Shown piece by piece: positions 46,824-62,200 of a stretch of 64,000 bases of DNA. The DNA lies in contig CAWAGQ010000003.1 of assembly GCA_963781585.1 (NCBI GenBank), positions 96,001 through 160,000 of the forward strand, written 5' to 3'. The DNA is from an uncultured Gemmatimonadaceae bacterium (GTDB lineage Bacteria; Gemmatimonadota; Gemmatimonadetes; Gemmatimonadales; Gemmatimonadaceae). The translations under genes were made by a program, and so were the position numbers. The notes under the pieces were generated by a model. It ran no database searches. It had not been told where the DNA came from and was given only the letters and a program-made list of their open reading frames with translations. Numbering within the stretch: the stretch's first letter is position 1; every line of letters starts with the position of its first letter.

Positions 46824-46862
46824 TTGCGGTTCCTGAAAGGCGGCCTGTCCGGCTGCCAGCCT

Positions 46863-46935
46863 GGGGGCGTAGCTCAGTTGGGAGAGCGCGTGAATGGCAT
46901 TCACGAGGTCAGGGGTTCGATCCCCCTCGCCTCCA
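46863..46935 (+). tRNA. tRNA-Ala (GGC)
   Basis: Cloverleaf, G3:U70 pair, anticodon loop ATGGCAT, GTTCGA T-loop. Confidence 0.97.
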
Positions 46936-46994
46936 TCAGGCCACCCGGCGCCACGAGGCAGCGCAGTTGGAGATGCGAGCGGGGGCCGTCGCAT

Positions 46995-47067
46995 GCGGGA
47001 ATAGCTCAGTTGGTAGAGCACAACCTTGCCAAGGTTGGGGTCGCGGGTTCGAGTCCCGTTTCCCGCT
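46995..47067 (+). tRNA. tRNA-Gly (GCC)
   Basis: GCGGGAA/TTCCCGC acceptor stem, anticodon GCC, U73. Confidence 0.97.
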
Positions 47068-47221
47068 CTGAGTGCCGCCGCTACACTGGAAAAGAGTACC
47101 TGAATGAGTGATATCGAGCGGGCCTCCTGCCATACGTGGTCTAATGGCTGATTGGTTCAGCACGCCGGGACCGTAGTCTGGAGGGCAGCCGACCCGCCGG
47201 TGACGGTGGGAGGGCGACACG

Positions 47222-47295
47222 GGGCGGTTAGCTCAGTTGGTTAGAGCGCCACGTTGACATCGTGGAGGTCACAAGTTCGAGTCTTGTACCGCCCA
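47222..47295 (+). tRNA. tRNA-Val (GAC)
   Basis: GGGCGGT/ACCGCCC acceptor stem, CCACG-TTGACAT-CGTGG arm. Confidence 0.97.
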
Positions 47296-47427
47296 TCTGC
47301 GAGACCCGAGGGCCGGATCGCGTTCGGCGCGACGCTCGGCGATCCTGCACGACACGCAATCCAGGATCCTGAGCAAATGACTGTACGGCAACGACTTGTG
47401 ACATTTCATTGCCGCGCGCCCGATGGC

Positions 47428-47457
47428 TTGACGATGCTGCGAGGGTCCTCTTAGCTT
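47428..47457 (+). promoter_or_regulatory. Putative second sigma-70 promoter for tRNA-Arg/Pro
   Basis: TTGACG-N18-TAGCTT. Confidence 0.5.
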
Positions 47458-47547
47458 GCGCCGGCCGCGGCGGCGGGGAGGGTCAGGGCAAGCAAACCGT
47501 CACTGCGGTCAGGTGGCCTCTGTGCATGTCGCTCAGATGGCCCCGTT

Positions 47548-47621
47548 GCGCCCTTAGCTCAATTGGATAGAGCATCTGACTACGGATCAGAAGGTTGGGA
47601 GTTCGAGTCTCTCAGGGCGCG
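47548..47621 (+). tRNA. tRNA-Arg (ACG)
   Basis: GCGCCCT/AGGGCGC acceptor stem, TCTGA-CTACGGA-TCAGA arm. Confidence 0.97.
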
Positions 47622-47654
47622 TGGAGGCAGCTGATGAAGGTTGGATCCGGGATT

Positions 47655-47728
47655 CGGGGCGTAGCTTAGCCCGGTAGAGCGCCTGCTTCGGGAGCAGGAG
47701 GTCGCTGGTTCAAATCCAGTCGCCCCGA
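47655..47728 (+). tRNA. tRNA-Pro (CGG)
   Basis: CGGGGCG/CGCCCCG acceptor stem, CCTGC-TTCGGGA-GCAGG arm. Confidence 0.97.
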
Positions 47729-47788
47729 CTGACGAGCGCGCGACGCTTTCCGCGCGCAGACGCCCCGCGAGATGCGGGGCGTCTGCTT

Positions 47789-51673: not shown

Positions 51674-51747
51674 GCGCGAGTAGCTCAGCTGGATAGAGCG
51701 TCGGCCTCCGGAGCCGAAGGTCGTGGGTTCGAATCCCGCCTCGCGCG
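51674..51747 (+). tRNA. tRNA-Arg (CCG)
   Basis: GCGCGAG/CTCGCGC acceptor stem, TCGGC-CTCCGGA-GCCGA arm. Confidence 0.97.
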
Positions 51748-51887
51748 CTTCAGGACCGCAACGCCTTTCCCCTCCGCGCGCATTCGCCGCACGGCCGGAC
51801 CGATGTTCCTTCGCGCCTGAGCATCCCGCGCAGCACCCTCCCCTGTCTCCGTACGCGCGCCCCCGTTCCGCCATTCGCAGCGCCACC

Positions 51888-56840: not shown

Positions 56841-57653
56841 ATGGCGCAAAGAGCTCACCTCTCGCTCCGGTACGAATACGAACTGTACGTTGAGCAGGAG
56901 ATCGAGACCTACAAGGACTCGATCCCGCGGTCGGCGATTCTCCGTATCGGCGATGAGGCGGTGGCCATCCTGCGTGAGCTCGAGCAGCCGGAATTCGACG
57001 AGCTGGTCATCTGGGCCGAAGTCGATCGCATCATTCGGCGTCGTCTCCGGCTTCCGAACTATGTCAGTTGGCGCCGCCGCCGCCTGAAACTGCTTGCCCA
57101 GTACCGGCGACCCGAGCATTGGGGCCTTGCCGCCGACGCCCCGCTGGTTCGCGAGATCATCCCCGACTCCGAAACCCGCGTCCTGGTGGCCGGGATCCGT
57201 CAGCAGGGGCCGGTACTCTACCTGGCCGCGAAAGGATGTCGCGTGACCGCGCTCGAAGAGGATGAGGAGGCCGTGGAACGCGTGATCGCGGCGGCGGGCC
57301 AGGTCGGCCTGACCTCCAGAGTGAATGGCCGCGCCGTGGGACTCGACGCCTGGGCACCCGATGCGCCACTGCACGCTGTGGTCTGCACCCCGGCGGCGTT
57401 CGAACACCTCTCATCCGACGAGCGCGTTCGCGTGATCGAGCTGCTCAAGAGCGCCACGATGGATGGCGGCGTGCACCTGGTTGAGACGCTGGTGGCGGGG
57501 CAAAACGAGCAGGGGCGGGGCGACAAATCGCGCCGCGCTCCCGGTGTCCTGAGCGACGCGGAGCTGCGTGCGCGGTATCGCGGATGGGACATCAGCATCG
57601 TACGCGACGAGCGATCCAACCGGACTTTCCTGGCGCGAAAGAGCGTCGCCTAG
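56841..57653 (+). CDS. Hypothetical protein: helical N-terminal domain plus a degenerate SAM-methyltransferase-like fold
   Basis: LYLAAKGCRVTALE and GGVHLVE resemble TehB/class I MTase strands but the GxGxG motif is absent. Confidence 0.6.
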   Translation: MAQRAHLSLRYEYELYVEQEIETYKDSIPRSAILRIGDEAVAILRELEQPEFDELVIWAEVDRIIRRRLRLPNYVSWRRRRLKLLAQYRRPEHWGLAADAPLVREIIPDSETRVLVAGIRQQGPVLYLAAKGCRVTALEEDEEAVERVIAAAGQVGLTSRVNGRAVGLDAWAPDAPLHAVVCTPAAFEHLSSDERVRVIELLKSATMDGGVHLVETLVAGQNEQGRGDKSRRAPGVLSDAELRARYRGWDISIVRDERSNRTFLARKSVA

Positions 57654-58062
57654 CTTCGCGCTGCCTGCCACCCGGGCTTTCCACGGGCGGCTGCTGGTGG
57701 TGTGGCAGAACGATACTGGTTGCCGATTGGCGACGTGTCTTTTCGCGACAGCCGAGGCGAACCGCGGCACGGCGACGCTGGCTAACACGGCGCGCACGTG
57801 GAGGTTGCACGCGACGTCGGTCCGGGCACCAATAGTGCCAAGCGGTGCTCGCGGAACGCGTCCCATACTAATAGTCGCGGCGGCCGCATTCGGTGAACCG
57901 TTCTCGCCGACTGCGGCCGCAACGCGTGGGGCTTGGCGCGTAGGTGCGATAATCGGGTCGCGAGCGCGGTTCCTCGTTGTCGATCGGGAAACAGGCGGCG
58001 CCAGGTTTCCCGTCCGGCACGGACGACATCCACTGAACTGGCGCAGCGAGAGGAATCATTCG

Positions 58063-58221
58063 GTGCCCAAGAGCCGTCAGACCGTAGCGGTTGAGCAGGA
58101 GCCCATCGGCATCATCATCTCGCGGGGACGCATTGTCGAGCCGTCGCCGCGGGTCACCGCATTCGTATGGGGGATCGGCGACGAGCCGGAGGAGGAGATT
58201 GCGACGCCAAAGCCCGCCTAG
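58063..58221 (+). CDS. Small hypothetical protein (52 aa, MPKSRQTVAVEQEPIGIIISRG...)
   Basis: GAGAGG RBS before GTG; GC3-rich codons; terminator downstream. Confidence 0.55.
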   Translation: MPKSRQTVAVEQEPIGIIISRGRIVEPSPRVTAFVWGIGDEPEEEIATPKPA

Positions 58222-58315
58222 GGCATTGGACCCTCCGGACCGCTCCCGAAGGCCATTCCGGAAGCGGCCCGCCTGAGAACGCGAGCTCGGGGTCCGGGGG
58301 GAAGACACTTGCGGA

Positions 58316-58352
58316 AACAAAAAAGCCGGCGCAAAGCGCCGGCTTTTTTGTT
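58316..58352. terminator. Bidirectional intrinsic terminator
   Basis: AACAAAAAAGCCGGCGC-AAA-GCGCCGGCTTTTTTGTT. Confidence 0.92.
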
Positions 58353-58367
58353 GGGCCGACCGCGTTA

Positions 58368-58412
58368 CTACTTCTTCTTTTTCTTCGCGGCCTTCTTCTT
58401 CTTCGCAGCCAT
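58368..58412 (-). CDS. 14-aa lysine-rich micropeptide MAAKKKKAAKKKKK
   Basis: GGAG 6 nt before ATG; ATG GCT GCG AAGx4 GCC GCG AAG AAA AAGx3 TAG TAA; terminator 12 nt after the second stop. Confidence 0.75.
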   Translation of the reverse strand: MAAKKKKAAKKKKK

Positions 58413-58635
58413 TGAAAGCTCCATGGTCTGGAGTTGAACACCGATCCAATCCCCCGGTGGACTGGTCGGCAGCAACCGGATGTGCGAACACCCGATTGGT
58501 TCTGCGCGCCGGACTGCGGCGCTTTACTGCGACAGTCGATCTGGGCCCGTCTCTTATCAAACAGATCGCGACGTCACGCGGCTTGGCGAGTACCGACGAT
58601 TCGCGCGCGCCCGCGTTTCAGCCGAAGTTGCCAGA

Positions 58636-58644
58636 ATTATATCA
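58636..58644 (-). promoter_or_regulatory. Extended -10 promoter for the micropeptide transcript
   Basis: Minus strand TGATATAAT, a perfect TGnTATAAT in a ~68% GC background (GC estimated by eye). Confidence 0.7.
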
Positions 58645-59292
58645 CGTCAGGTGAACGCATACAGCTGAGTCGACGGCAGCGGGGCCGGCGGCCAAGTGCG
58701 GAGCGATGAGCCAGCATCACCTCGGGGGAGCGAGCGCCCGCCGTCGAATGAGGTGAGTTCATCTCGGTTGAGCGCGCTCCCGGCCACAGCCGCCGAGGGG
58801 CTCATCGAGGAAGGAGCGAGTAGCGCGTTCTGGAGAATATGTGATTGGGTTAGAACCCACGCAGCAACCTCGCGCGCACACACGTGCGACGGGAGCGAAT
58901 ATAGGATACCGCGAAATCGCACGCAATACTCTCGCGAGCCGGCGTAGTCGCTCGAAGGATCGGACCCGCGTCGTCGTGGGCCCGCGACGCGATGTCGGCC
59001 GAGGCAGCACGCGCGTCGATCGCCGAGGGAGAACGACGCGCGACGCCGGCAAAATTCGCGAAGCGCAGATCGACGTCCTTCGATTCGCGGCGGCACCGCA
59101 TCGCGGACACCGCGCCGTGCATGGGACGGCGACCGGGGACGCGCGATACGCTGGCGGGCGCCGCCGATCGCACGATCCGGGCTCCTCTCCACCTCCCCTT
59201 CTCTGTCCTCGCCTCCTAGAATCCTTATGAGAGCCCAAGGGCCAGAGGCCAAGGGCTCGAGGCGAGAGTCGTTTCTTTATTTGCCGTGACGA

Positions 59293-62200
59293 ATGCCAAC
59301 ACTCTCCATTGACGGTCGATCGGTTACGGTTGCCGAAGGCGCCACCATCCTGGACGCGGCGCGCGTGCTCGAGATCGACGTCCCGACGCTCTGCTGGTAC
59401 CCCAAGCTGCCGGTAGTCGGCAATTGTCGCATCTGTCTGGTCACCGTCGCGGGGAATCCCAAGCTGGTTCCCGCGTGCGCCACCCAGGCCGCGGACGGTA
59501 TGGAAGTCACCACCGAGTCGCTCGCTGCGGTGAAGAGCCGGCACGGCGTGCTCAGCATGCTGCTCGAGCGTTATCCGGCAGCTGACATTCCGGAAACGGG
59601 GTATCGCAACGAATTCGAAGCGCTCGTCCGGCGCTACGACGTCCCGTCCGTGCGGCGATCGGGTATGGCCCTTCGCGCGGGGGACGAGCGCGACGGCGAC
59701 CCGATCATTCAGCACGATATGAGCCTCTGCATCCTGTGCACGCGGTGTGTCCGGGCCTGCGAGGACATTCAGGTGGTTGGGGTGCTCGACGTGGCGAACC
59801 GGGGTGATCACACGGAGATCATCGTGGGAGCCGACGGAAATCCCGAACACGCCGGGTGCACCTGGTGCGGTGAGTGCGTTCGCGTGTGTCCCACCGGCGC
59901 CATCCACGACATCATCCCGATGGCGATTCGCATGGCGGACGGCCAGTCCGCGAGTCGGGTGAGCTCCAAGGACATGCCGCCCGCGGACCGAACCGTGCGC
60001 AGTGTCTGTCCGTACTGCGGCGTCGGATGTCAGATCGATCTCCAGGTCCGCGACGGCAGCGTGGTACACGTGCAGAGCCCGTGGATCGAGGAGAACACGC
60101 CCAACCAGGGCTCTACCTGTGTGAAGGGGCGCTTCGGGACCGACTTCGTGCAACATCGCGACCGCCTGGGTGTGCCGCTCATCCGCCGTGGCTGGGTGAA
60201 GCGCGCCGGCGGCTGGGTCTACGATCCCGCGGACGACGGTGGCGGACGATGGGGACGACGCGGTGGACCGTGGAACCTGGTCCAAGACGAGGCGAGGACG
60301 CGGAAGCGACGGCCGCCATCGAATCCGCTGGTGACAGCGCCCACCGGGATCGGCCCATTGGGAGACGCGCGCGACCGCGTCGCCACGCCGCACGAGTGGT
60401 ATGAGCCGTTCCGCGAGGCGACGTGGGAAGAAGCCCTGGAACTCACCGCGCAGGAGCTTGTGAGGCTGAAGAACACCCACGGTCCCAACTCGCTGGCCGT
60501 GTTCCAGTCCGCCAAGTGTACGAACGAAGAGAACTACCTGCTCCAGCGCATGTTCCGCGGCGGACTGGGCACGAACAACGTCGATCACTGCACGCGCCTC
60601 TGTCACTCGTCGTCGGTGAGCGCGATGCAGCGGTCCATGAACACCAGCGCCGCGTCGGGCTCGATGCGGGAAGTCGAGACCGAGGCAGACGTGGTTTTCC
60701 TCCTGGGAGCCAACACCACGGAATCGCACCCCGTCTTCGGGGCCGCGATAAAACGGGCAGTCAAGCGCGGAGCGACGCTCATCGTGTGCGACCCACGGCG
60801 CATCGAGCTGGCGCAGCGCGCCCACATTCATCTGCAGGCCCTCCCGGGTACCGACGTCGCGCTCCTGAACGCGATGCTGAACCACATCCTGGCGCTGGGG
60901 CTCGAAGACGAGGAGTTCATCGCCGCACGCACGCACGAGTTTGCGGCAGTCCGCGACGCCGTGCGCCCCTACACCCCCGAGCGCGCCGAGACGATCACCG
61001 GTGTTCGGGCGGACCTCATCCGGCGGGCGGCCGAGCTCTACGCGCGCGGGCCAAGATCCTCGACGCTCTGGGCGATGGGTCTGACCCAGCACCGCACGGG
61101 CACCGACATCGTGGCCGCCCTGCTGAATCTCATCCTCGCCACGGGAATGATCGGCCGATGGGGCGCCGCCATGCTCCCCATCCGCGGACAAAACAACGTG
61201 CAGGGCGCGAGCGACGTGGGCGCCATCCCCATGGTCTACACGGACTATCAACCGGTCACCGACCCCGCGATCCGGCACGTGTTCGCGTCCGCCTGGGGCG
61301 TGCCGGATGAGCGCATCCCGCTCGAGGTCGGGCTCAAGGTGACAGACATCGTGCAGGAGGACAGTCCGGTACGCGGCATGTTCATCATGGGGGAGAACCC
61401 CATCCTGTCCGATCCCGAGGTCTCGCACGCGGAACACTGGTTCCGTGAACTCGAGTTTCTCACCGTCCAGGACCTCTTCCTGACGGAGACGGCACGGTAC
61501 GCCGACGTCGTACTTCCCGGTGCTTCGTTCGCCGAGAAGACGGGCACGTTCGTCAACACGGAGCGACGAATCCAGCTGTCGCACCAGGCGATCGATCCAC
61601 CAGGCGTGGCGCGCGCCGATCTCGACATCATCATCGATCTGTCCAACCGGATCGGTCTGCCGACGCGGTTCCGCAACTCGGCCGAGGTCATGGACGAGAT
61701 TGCGAGCGTCACACCATCGTGGCGCGGTGTCTCGCACCGCCGGCTGGAGGAATCGGGCGGGCTCCAGTATCCGGTGCCGCACGAAACGCACGGGGGCACC
61801 GACTTTCTGTTCGCGGAGTCGTTCCCGACCGCCGACGGCCGCGCCACGTTCGTTCCGGTGGAGTTTCTGCCGCCGGCGGAGCTGCCGGACGACGACTATC
61901 CGTTCATGCTCAACACCGGGCGCCAGATGTACCACTGGCACACCGGGACGATGACCCGGCGGTCCTTCGCGCTCGACGCCCGCGAGCCAGGCCCCATCGT
62001 GGAGCTCAATCCCGAAGACGCGCGGGAGCTGAACGTGCTCGACGGCGATGAAGTGGTGGTCGCATCGCGCCGCGGCATGGTGAGGATTTCCGTGCGGATG
62101 TCGGGCCGCGTGGCGCGGAAGCAGGTCTTCATCCCGATGCACTATCGAGAGGCGGCGGTTAACCTGCTCACGAACCCGCAGTTGGATCCGTATGCGGGGA

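Follow-up and report, generated by a model that had tools for sequence, protein, structure and literature searches.

A covarying leader RNA precedes a probable poly-lysine micro-gene in Gemmatimonadaceae

Can a run of 14 codons, most of them for lysine, be a gene? The question is raised by positions 58316 to 58644, read on the minus strand, of a 64,000-nucleotide (nt) stretch of DNA from an uncultured Gemmatimonadaceae bacterium (GenBank assembly GCA_963781585.1, contig CAWAGQ010000003.1, positions 96,001 to 160,000), hereafter the window. An initial annotation, made from the letters of the sequence, had proposed that these positions hide a stand-alone transcription unit for a poly-lysine micropeptide. 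Comparison with related genomes bears out the core of that proposal, in that the open reading frame (ORF) is conserved with constraint at the protein level, and adds what the proposal had passed over, namely a conserved, covarying leader between promoter and ATG. We consider the locus quite probably a genuine unannotated micro-gene, in which a translated polycationic peptide resembling histone H1 stands under a new cis-regulatory leader. Judged by comparison, the covarying structured leader is the most distinctive and novel part of the unit and a new structured RNA motif.

The ~125 nt ahead of the ATG are more conserved in alignment than the flanks of the ORF, and the window leader folds into a junction of five helices (z -5.9). 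We built a model, R1, from ten sequences with the window structure, leaving helix P4 unpaired, and aligned 32 distinct members to it. The window locus tops the R1 scores (157.9 bits), with leader, Shine-Dalgarno sequence (SD), ATG and terminator intact; the match, at 58395-58538 (G000:C3:154395-154538), takes in the first six codons. Across the 32 sequences 90.5% of cells pair, versus 69.2% in shuffles (0 of 500 reach the observed value) and 28-47% with the partners slid, in an alignment that favours structure because it was fitted to the model and with shuffle counts that are not probabilities because the sequences are related. The leader is a conserved structure supported by compensatory changes, with both sides altered in 33 of its 38 pairs (Table 1 gives the figures helix by helix). 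When 16 homologs were folded singly, P1 to P4 formed in each and the P0 closure in most, not all. The hexaloop of P3, ACCGGG, is identical in all 32 members. Against Rfam 15 (4227 models), the window leader returned only far-sub-threshold noise at E values up to 10, and ten diverse member loci gave 0 matches at gathering scores; we found neither the micro-gene unit nor its leader described in the published literature, nor any dedicated RNA motif described for the phylum Gemmatimonadota.

The ORF recurs with the leader. At the model end, 32 of 32 aligned loci carry an ORF rich in lysine, arginine and alanine (31 by filter and one, L145, by inspection), as do the 12 strongest further matches to a broader model, R2. 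An SD of the form GGAG(A) stands 5-9 nt ahead of the ATG in 31 of 31 members; among the members listed, an in-frame stop always comes ahead of the terminator, and a GC-rich hairpin lies 3′ of the ORF in every case. The window has GGAG (58422-58419) 6 nt ahead of the ATG (58412-58410), as initially annotated, and the product MAAKKKKAAKKKKK, read directly from the minus strand, uses eight AAG and one AAA codon and consists of nine lysines and four alanines in 14 residues. In a BLAST comparison with 40 relatives, four genomes had long matches (G001, of the window's own genus, at 93%; G024, G015 and G016, of three other genera, at 81-85%) and G023 a partial one, and most of the remaining 'matches' (22 of 41) covered the AAG run or the terminator only. 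A second species of the genus (G001) has an identical ORF, and the aligned relatives keep the frame with varied sequences, for example MAAKKKKAAKKGGKKKK and MPMKKKAKKSTKKAAKKSTKKAAKKK.

Its composition is strongly restricted. Over ~960 codons from 31 members, lysine accounts for 47%, alanine 29%, arginine 6%, threonine 6% and glycine 5%, and D, E, F, W, Y, L, I, C, H, N and Q are absent, acidic, aromatic and large hydrophobic residues among them. All four alanine codons are in use, lysine is AAG in 95% of cases, and lysine and arginine exchange through unrelated codons (AAG to CGC, CGT or AGA). Lengths run continuously from 14, 14, 17, 18, 19, 20 and 21 to 110 amino acids (aa), with 134 aa in L145 and a median of ~22; no member is shorter than the window ORF and its twin in the same genus. 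On comparative evidence alone, the 14-codon ORF is under protein-level selection, and it looks translated. All indels in the ORF are multiples of three, which is weak evidence because (AAG)n runs expand in units of three by slippage.

The initial annotation had asked for conservation of the ORF and its ribosome-binding site in relatives and would have yielded to its absence; what we found is that ORF, SD, start and terminator are kept across genera, with constraint at the protein level. Its view that such signals would not gather around a tiny ORF by chance also stands, given the rarity of the -10 element (below) and the recurrence of ORF, SD and terminator at every one of the 32 homologous loci examined. 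The second start that it had offered, an in-frame ATG at 58424, is present; several relatives have it in frame and others have CTG, CAG, TTG or AAG in its place, and because it is replaced in relatives and overlaps the SD we do not take it for the conserved start.

Within the window's family (f1, records titled Gemmatimonadaceae), R1 detects the unit in 17 of 31 further genomes, with one copy per genome; outside it, 0 of 119 genomes, drawn from 11 families of the phylum, gave a match. With R2 the count is 53 of 62 f1 genomes (52 of 61 without the unpublished G008), 4 of 27 in family f3 and 2 of 61 in family f2, weak R2 matches being driven in part by ORF-start bases inside the model. The micro-ORFs of f3 (17-21 aa) also have a terminator, and their leader is related but shorter, consisting of a hairpin of nine base pairs (bp) with the loop ACUGGG, ACUAGG or ACUUCG, then GUUC(A/C)A, then the SD; in the sister families, a protein family of lysine, alanine and arginine only is found with a simpler leader. 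Independently of the leader, the pattern MAAKKK.AKK occurs in 28 of 401 genomes (f1 19/93, f2 8/166, f3 1/5) and in 0 of 136 genomes in nine other families, and the reversed-pattern control gave 0. The window's genome yielded no other lysine-dominated micro-ORF. A wide 16-mer scan of genome contigs returned at least 118 stretches, at least 11 of them true members; because the stretches are mostly chance matches in unrelated phyla, the scan is uninformative on other phyla, and the true members listed all have Gemmatimonadota-type titles where titles are shown. Four weak R2 matches (26-30 bits; L199, L202, L205 and L206) were left out of the members because the start of the ORF, whose bases the model includes, probably accounts for them. 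They precede a 58-aa ORF, MAAKKKP...AGRIIGEGAAAVPELVRLL..EAKVL, which is conserved among them, opens with the same codons and has the look of a small protein unrelated to the family.

Many of the MAAKKK.AKK matches are proteins of 95-127 aa in which a lysine tail is fused to a SWIB/MDM2 domain (Pfam PF02201). They include L163, L168, L170, L172, L195-L198, L200 and others, and the window's genome has one such gene outside the window (contig C11, about 350230-350618). The micro-ORF looks like a tail-only relative of this gene: like the lysine-tailed SWIB nucleoid-protein paralogs of Gemmatimonadota it begins with a MAAKKKAAKK-type N-terminus, and unlike them it is the tail alone, PF02201 occurring only in the paralogs. 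Of the leader, the complete P0-P2 part belongs to the micro-ORF only. An ACCGGG-loop hairpin with a different stem does lie 37-50 nt ahead of the AUG, before the SD, in 9 of 19 distinct lysine-tailed SWIB genes (seven found by rule and two, with a bulged stem, by eye); such hairpins are uncommon, those with a stem of at least 5 bp numbering 54 in 11.4 Mb, both strands of the window's genome. That the loop hairpin is kept on the micro-ORF and on SWIB genes points to shared recognition by a common factor. The SWIB genes also have ...CCCTATTGCG...(T)TTACTTTCGAG... in common in their upstream regions, possibly as a promoter or as a further conserved element of a leader. As a separate observation, the core of the hexaloop is self-complementary in most variants (CCGG in the window at 58458-58453; CUAG, and CUGG with a wobble; f3 loci L010, L011, L176 and L208), which would allow loop-loop kissing, for example between a SWIB mRNA and that of the micro-ORF; the ACUUCG variant is at odds with this idea.

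The initial annotation had likened the peptide to the H1-like proteins of bacteria. The low-complexity repeats dominated by lysine and alanine that mark those proteins are found here, and the likeness is strengthened by a continuous family reaching AKK-repeat proteins of 105-134 aa, by the SWIB-fused paralogs and by a sub-threshold match to the family HC2 (L145, 134 aa, the only one of six members with a Pfam match; 29 bits versus a cut-off of 40). The 14-aa window peptide is too short for a Pfam search, and sequences in the Protein Data Bank gave low-complexity or sub-threshold matches only. Like chlamydial Hc1/Hc2, Pseudomonas AlgP and the C-terminal domain of PhaF, the products are built of lysine, alanine and small residues in short repeats, and the family members of 89-134 aa resemble the repeats of these proteins. 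Unlike H1-like proteins, the window product has 14 residues and the family a median of ~22, far shorter than any described, with no folded domain; and unlike Hc1/Hc2, AlgP and PhaF, the micro-gene has a dedicated structured leader. Targets of such repeats include DNA, specific RNAs and polyphosphate granules (PMC9239181; PMC12818456). One account describes lysine-dependent binding of specific transcripts by the K/A repeats of PhaF, with activation of translation (PMC12818456); AlgP is described as associating with polyphosphate granules (PMC12818456; PMC9239181), and plastid SWIB-4, which joins an H1 motif to a SWIB domain, as binding and compacting DNA (PMC4154389).

The remaining parts of the transcription unit are collected in Table 1. 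The extended -10 element TGATATAAT is present at 58644-58636, as the initial annotation had it, and has three sites in the entire 5.7-Mb genome of 67% GC (G000); TGNTATAAT has one site in the 64-kb window versus 0.04 expected, and 4 of 100 shuffles contain at least one. The same-genus genome G001 has TGATATAGT at the equivalent position. The predicted RNA start near 58629 draws its support from this rarity, and the promoter-to-ATG distance would give a 5′ untranslated region (UTR) of ~215 nt, the last ~125 nt being the structured leader. The 5′ extension is shared by G000 and G001 only, and the conserved leader fold survives its addition (z -4.0). In several genera a TTGACA-like hexamer lies upstream of the leader at variable distance, with no convincing -10 after it. 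The tandem TAG TAA stop of the initial annotation is present at 58370-58365 and, among the members listed, is confined to G000 and G001. The strong bidirectional terminator that it placed 12 nt further on is likewise a real hairpin of 17 bp by RNAfold (A-tract 58349-58344; GC stem 58343-58336 / 58332-58325; loop UUU; U-tract 58324-58319), possibly bidirectional given its flanking A and U tracts, but it begins ~15 nt past the second stop and not 12. A search for tRNA and tmRNA genes found none at the micro-gene locus.

Table 1. Features of the micro-gene unit, in positions of the window (MFE, minimum free energy; pairing and two-sided changes refer to the 32-sequence alignment).
Feature	Position	Strand	Remarks
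Extended -10 promoter element TGATATAAT	58636..58644	minus	Lacks a good -35; start predicted near 58629
Genus-specific 5′ extension of the transcript	58539..58629	minus	Alignment diverges upstream of ~58538 in other genera
Conserved structured leader RNA	58413..58538	minus	Models R1, R2; covariation
P0, 5′ strand UCGCAGU	58526..58532	minus	Partner strand in codons 2-3 (GCUGCGA, 58409-58403), the pairing closing the junction; MFE fold; helix 1, 77% of cells paired, both sides change in 4/6 pairs
P1 hairpin GCGCCG-CAGUC-CGGCGC	58506..58522	minus	Helix 2, 92% paired, both sides change in 5/6 pairs
Junction helix GAAC (58502-58499) / GUUC (58439-58436)	58436..58502	minus	Encloses P2 and P3; helix 3, 75.7% paired, both sides change in 4/4 pairs
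P2 hairpin, 11 bp (CAAUCGGGUGU / ACAUCCGGUUG), variable loop	58473..58498	minus	Helix 4, 94.8% paired, both sides change in 11/11 pairs
P3 hairpin: P3a GCCG/CGGU, P3b CCAGUCC/GGAUUGG, hexaloop ACCGGG (58458-58453)	58440..58470	minus	Helices 5 and 6, ~98% paired, both sides change in 9/11 pairs
P4 hairpin CUCCA-GACCA-UGGAG	58419..58433	minus	Holds SD GGAG (58422-58419); MFE fold
Micro-ORF, 14 codons, MAAKKKKAAKKKKK	58371..58412	minus	Conserved family, protein-level constraint
Tandem stops TAG (58370-58368) and TAA (58367-58365)	58365..58370	minus	Read from sequence
Intrinsic terminator, GCCGGCGC stem with flanking A/U tracts	58319..58349	minus	

The SD is paired in the MFE folds of 31 of 31 members, with a mean probability of 0.79. 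We set this figure aside as a distinctive mark, given that 150 long ORFs with a GGAG SD from the same genome have a mean of 0.70 and a median of 0.74, 58% of them at or above 0.7. By a stricter test, a contiguous local hairpin of at least 5 bp over the whole SD, 18 of 31 members qualify versus 53 of 418 control genes. One flanking pair in P4 shows a compensatory change (CUCCA/UGGAG in nine members, CUCCU/AGGAG in seven), and in other subgroups three SD bases pair with a differently placed partner. P4 is plausible, and much less secure than P1 to P3.

The neighbours of the unit are a convergent plus-strand ORF (57568-58221), which has no family match, and a divergent gene for a molybdopterin oxidoreductase. 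Between the end of the former at 58221 and the start of the latter at 59293 lie ~1.07 kb (58222-59292) with no ORF matching a family, of which the micro-gene unit takes up only 58316-58644; 58645-59292 may hold the regulatory region of the oxidoreductase gene. In 7 of 32 loci (L014, L076, L135, L137, L142, L003 and L006) a gene for a TldD/PmbA-family metallopeptidase ends on the same strand just before or inside P1, which overlaps its stop codon in these relatives, and at these loci gene and micro-gene may share a transcript. In the window's genome two TldD/PmbA genes are present, on contigs C5 and C8, away from the unit; with the association limited to those seven loci and absent at the window, we set aside a functional link and treat it as context only. 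The arrangement in the window is consistent with a unit that has moved and carries a promoter of its own. Over long stretches, C5 and C8 code for nearly identical proteins in matching order (a TldD-like protein, a 191-aa H1-like protein rich in lysine, proline and alanine, and others), which points to two strains that are closely related or to a duplication within the assembly (reported contamination 7.19%). Elsewhere in the window, a tRNA cluster (Ala, Gly, Val, Arg, Pro) occupies 46862-47729 and a tRNA-Arg gene 51674-51748, all on the plus strand.

RNA libraries offer a weak hint of transcription. A contig from a close relative spans leader and ORF in four of four runs from three studies, with 6-7 differences over 156-175 nt; DNA may be present in these libraries, and the contigs do not define RNA ends. 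None of the four runs covers any of 58556-58750. A start near 58629 thus gains no support from RNA, nor does it lose any, because the relatives from which the contigs derive differ upstream.

We think that the leader is probably a cis-acting translational control element. In the mechanism we propose, transcription from the extended -10 would produce the long 5′ UTR with its P0-P4 leader, the 14-codon Lys/Ala ORF and the intrinsic terminator. With the SD inside P4 and codons 2-3 paired in P0, a ribosome would need both helices open. The P2/P3 junction with its invariant ACCGGG hairpin would be the part recognised by a putative signal; as a guess, we favour feedback from the polycationic products themselves or from a factor that the unit has in common with the lysine-tailed SWIB gene. 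As for the peptide, its most likely role would be that of a minimal H1-like counter-ion to DNA, RNA or polyphosphate as polyanions.

Several observations weigh against this account, beside the cautions on alignment, shuffles and indels given above. Transcription and translation in the window's organism are read from comparison, and public sequencing runs included none with the window's own sequence (shares of 0.08-0.10 only). The extended -10 is not conserved outside the genus in alignment with other genera, and a simple consensus scan listed neither the promoter of the micro-gene, which has no -35, nor its terminator. P0 is the weakest helix, its 3′ strand being constrained by coding as well, the pairing probability of the SD hardly sets the family apart from ordinary genes, and a clean local SD hairpin is present in only 18 of 31 members, with its partner 5′ or 3′ by subgroup. 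The SWIB gene of the window's own genome lacks the ACCGGG-loop hairpin, and a low-complexity polycation is not an obvious fit for recognising a specific hexaloop. As to the product, Pfam returned nothing for five of six members and no protein family above threshold, and NCBIfam, at E values up to 1, gave no ribosomal-protein or other relevant match for five members of 26-105 aa. An exact look-up of ten members in a collection of 15 billion proteins found 0 of 10. Genes this small fall below the length limits of gene callers, and trypsin would cut a lysine-rich product to pieces before proteomics; the empty look-up is consistent with these two blind spots.

The features of the leader raise the alternative of a classical riboswitch, in which an ion or small molecule (Mg2+, a polyamine or an alarmone, for instance) binds at the P2/P3 junction and decides whether the SD hairpin forms, with the peptide as output. 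Several helices meeting in a strongly covarying junction whose unpaired nucleotides are invariant, and an SD hairpin directly downstream of it, are what such an element would show, and in the absence of any matching Rfam class it would be a new one. Riboswitches usually control several kinds of transport or metabolic genes; this leader is tied only to genes whose product begins with a lysine-rich sequence, and the gene context suggests no candidate ligand. Its distribution is also narrow, with no R1 match outside the family and few R2 matches in f2 and f3. We judge a riboswitch unlikely.

A tiny ribosomal or ribosome-associated protein, similar to bTHX, bS22 or eL41, whose leader is an operator mimicking an rRNA site, seems to us quite improbable. 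The gene, with one copy per genome, occurs in most genomes of the family, the product is extremely basic, and the leader resembles the ribosomal-protein autoregulatory leaders in Rfam in being dedicated to one small basic-protein gene, in holding the SD in a helix and in being restricted to a lineage. Unlike those leaders, it has no Rfam match, and its product is of low complexity and variable length; 14-134 aa with a free number of repeats is a misfit for a fixed rRNA pocket, and no NCBIfam ribosomal model matched. The leader does share the 9-mer ACCGGGGGA with the 16S rRNA of the window's genome. For the 16S rRNA, mimicry through this 9-mer looks unlikely, since the 16S segment does not change together with the leader loop in f3 and is a helix strand, not a hairpin loop; a search of the assembly did not locate the 23S rRNA.

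The unit could instead be read as a non-coding small RNA of the Hfq type, with the ORF incidental. Hfq binds A-R-N repeats, a pattern into which (AAG)n ahead of the terminator fits; the leader is more conserved than the ORF, and short contigs from RNA libraries span both. The unit may have a dual function, coding and at the RNA level. That the ORF is incidental is very improbable: an ATG with an SD at proper spacing in 31 of 31 members, an in-frame stop always before the terminator, a restricted residue set over ~960 codons and members of up to 134 aa all speak for coding, the N-terminus is common to SWIB proteins, which are certainly translated, and exchange of lysine for arginine through CGN codons breaks the A-R-N pattern while keeping the charge.

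Still less credible is a decaying, non-functional remnant of a longer gene, either an H1-like member or the 5′ part of a SWIB gene. The window ORF is the shortest member, and the unit is gone from the TldD/PmbA neighbourhood that it occupies in seven relatives; yet the ORF is identical in a second species of the genus, it stands at the end of a continuum of lengths (14, 17, 18, 19, 20, 21 and up), leader, SD, ATG and terminator are intact in the locus that scores highest of all, and a rare strong -10 lies upstream. Finally, nine lysine codons in 14 before a terminator, with sub-threshold Rfam matches to the Thr and Leu operon leaders, recall the leader peptide of an attenuator sensing charged tRNA-Lys, a notion we can scarcely credit, given that those matches align the terminator hairpin alone (Thr_leader 32.5 bits versus 55, Leu_leader 27.2 versus 50), no same-strand gene follows (the plus-strand ORF runs convergently towards the terminator), there is no sign of an alternative antiterminator, and members of 61-134 codons are not leader peptides.

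Our preferred reading is that of a translated H1-like micro-gene under a controlling leader. In a more specific form, which we hold to be distinctly unlikely, the leader would be an RNA sensor of the balance between polycations and polyanions, its ACCGGG hairpin bound by the lysine-rich products or by a shared factor so as to close the SD and start. Were that form correct, the micro-ORF and SWIB mRNAs, which carry the hairpin in common in several genera, would make up a small post-transcriptional regulon limiting free nucleoid- or polyphosphate-binding polycations, and the 14-residue peptide would rank as the smallest autoregulated component of a nucleoid or condensate so far known. The finding itself is of an RNA motif, apparently new, whose covariation is unusually clean and which is tied only to genes opening with a poly-lysine stretch. 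Should the leader respond to its own product or to a shared factor, it would offer a simple system in which to study the dosing, by bacteria, of potentially toxic, highly charged polycations that bind nucleic acids or polyphosphate, and would add a leader class from the phylum Gemmatimonadota.

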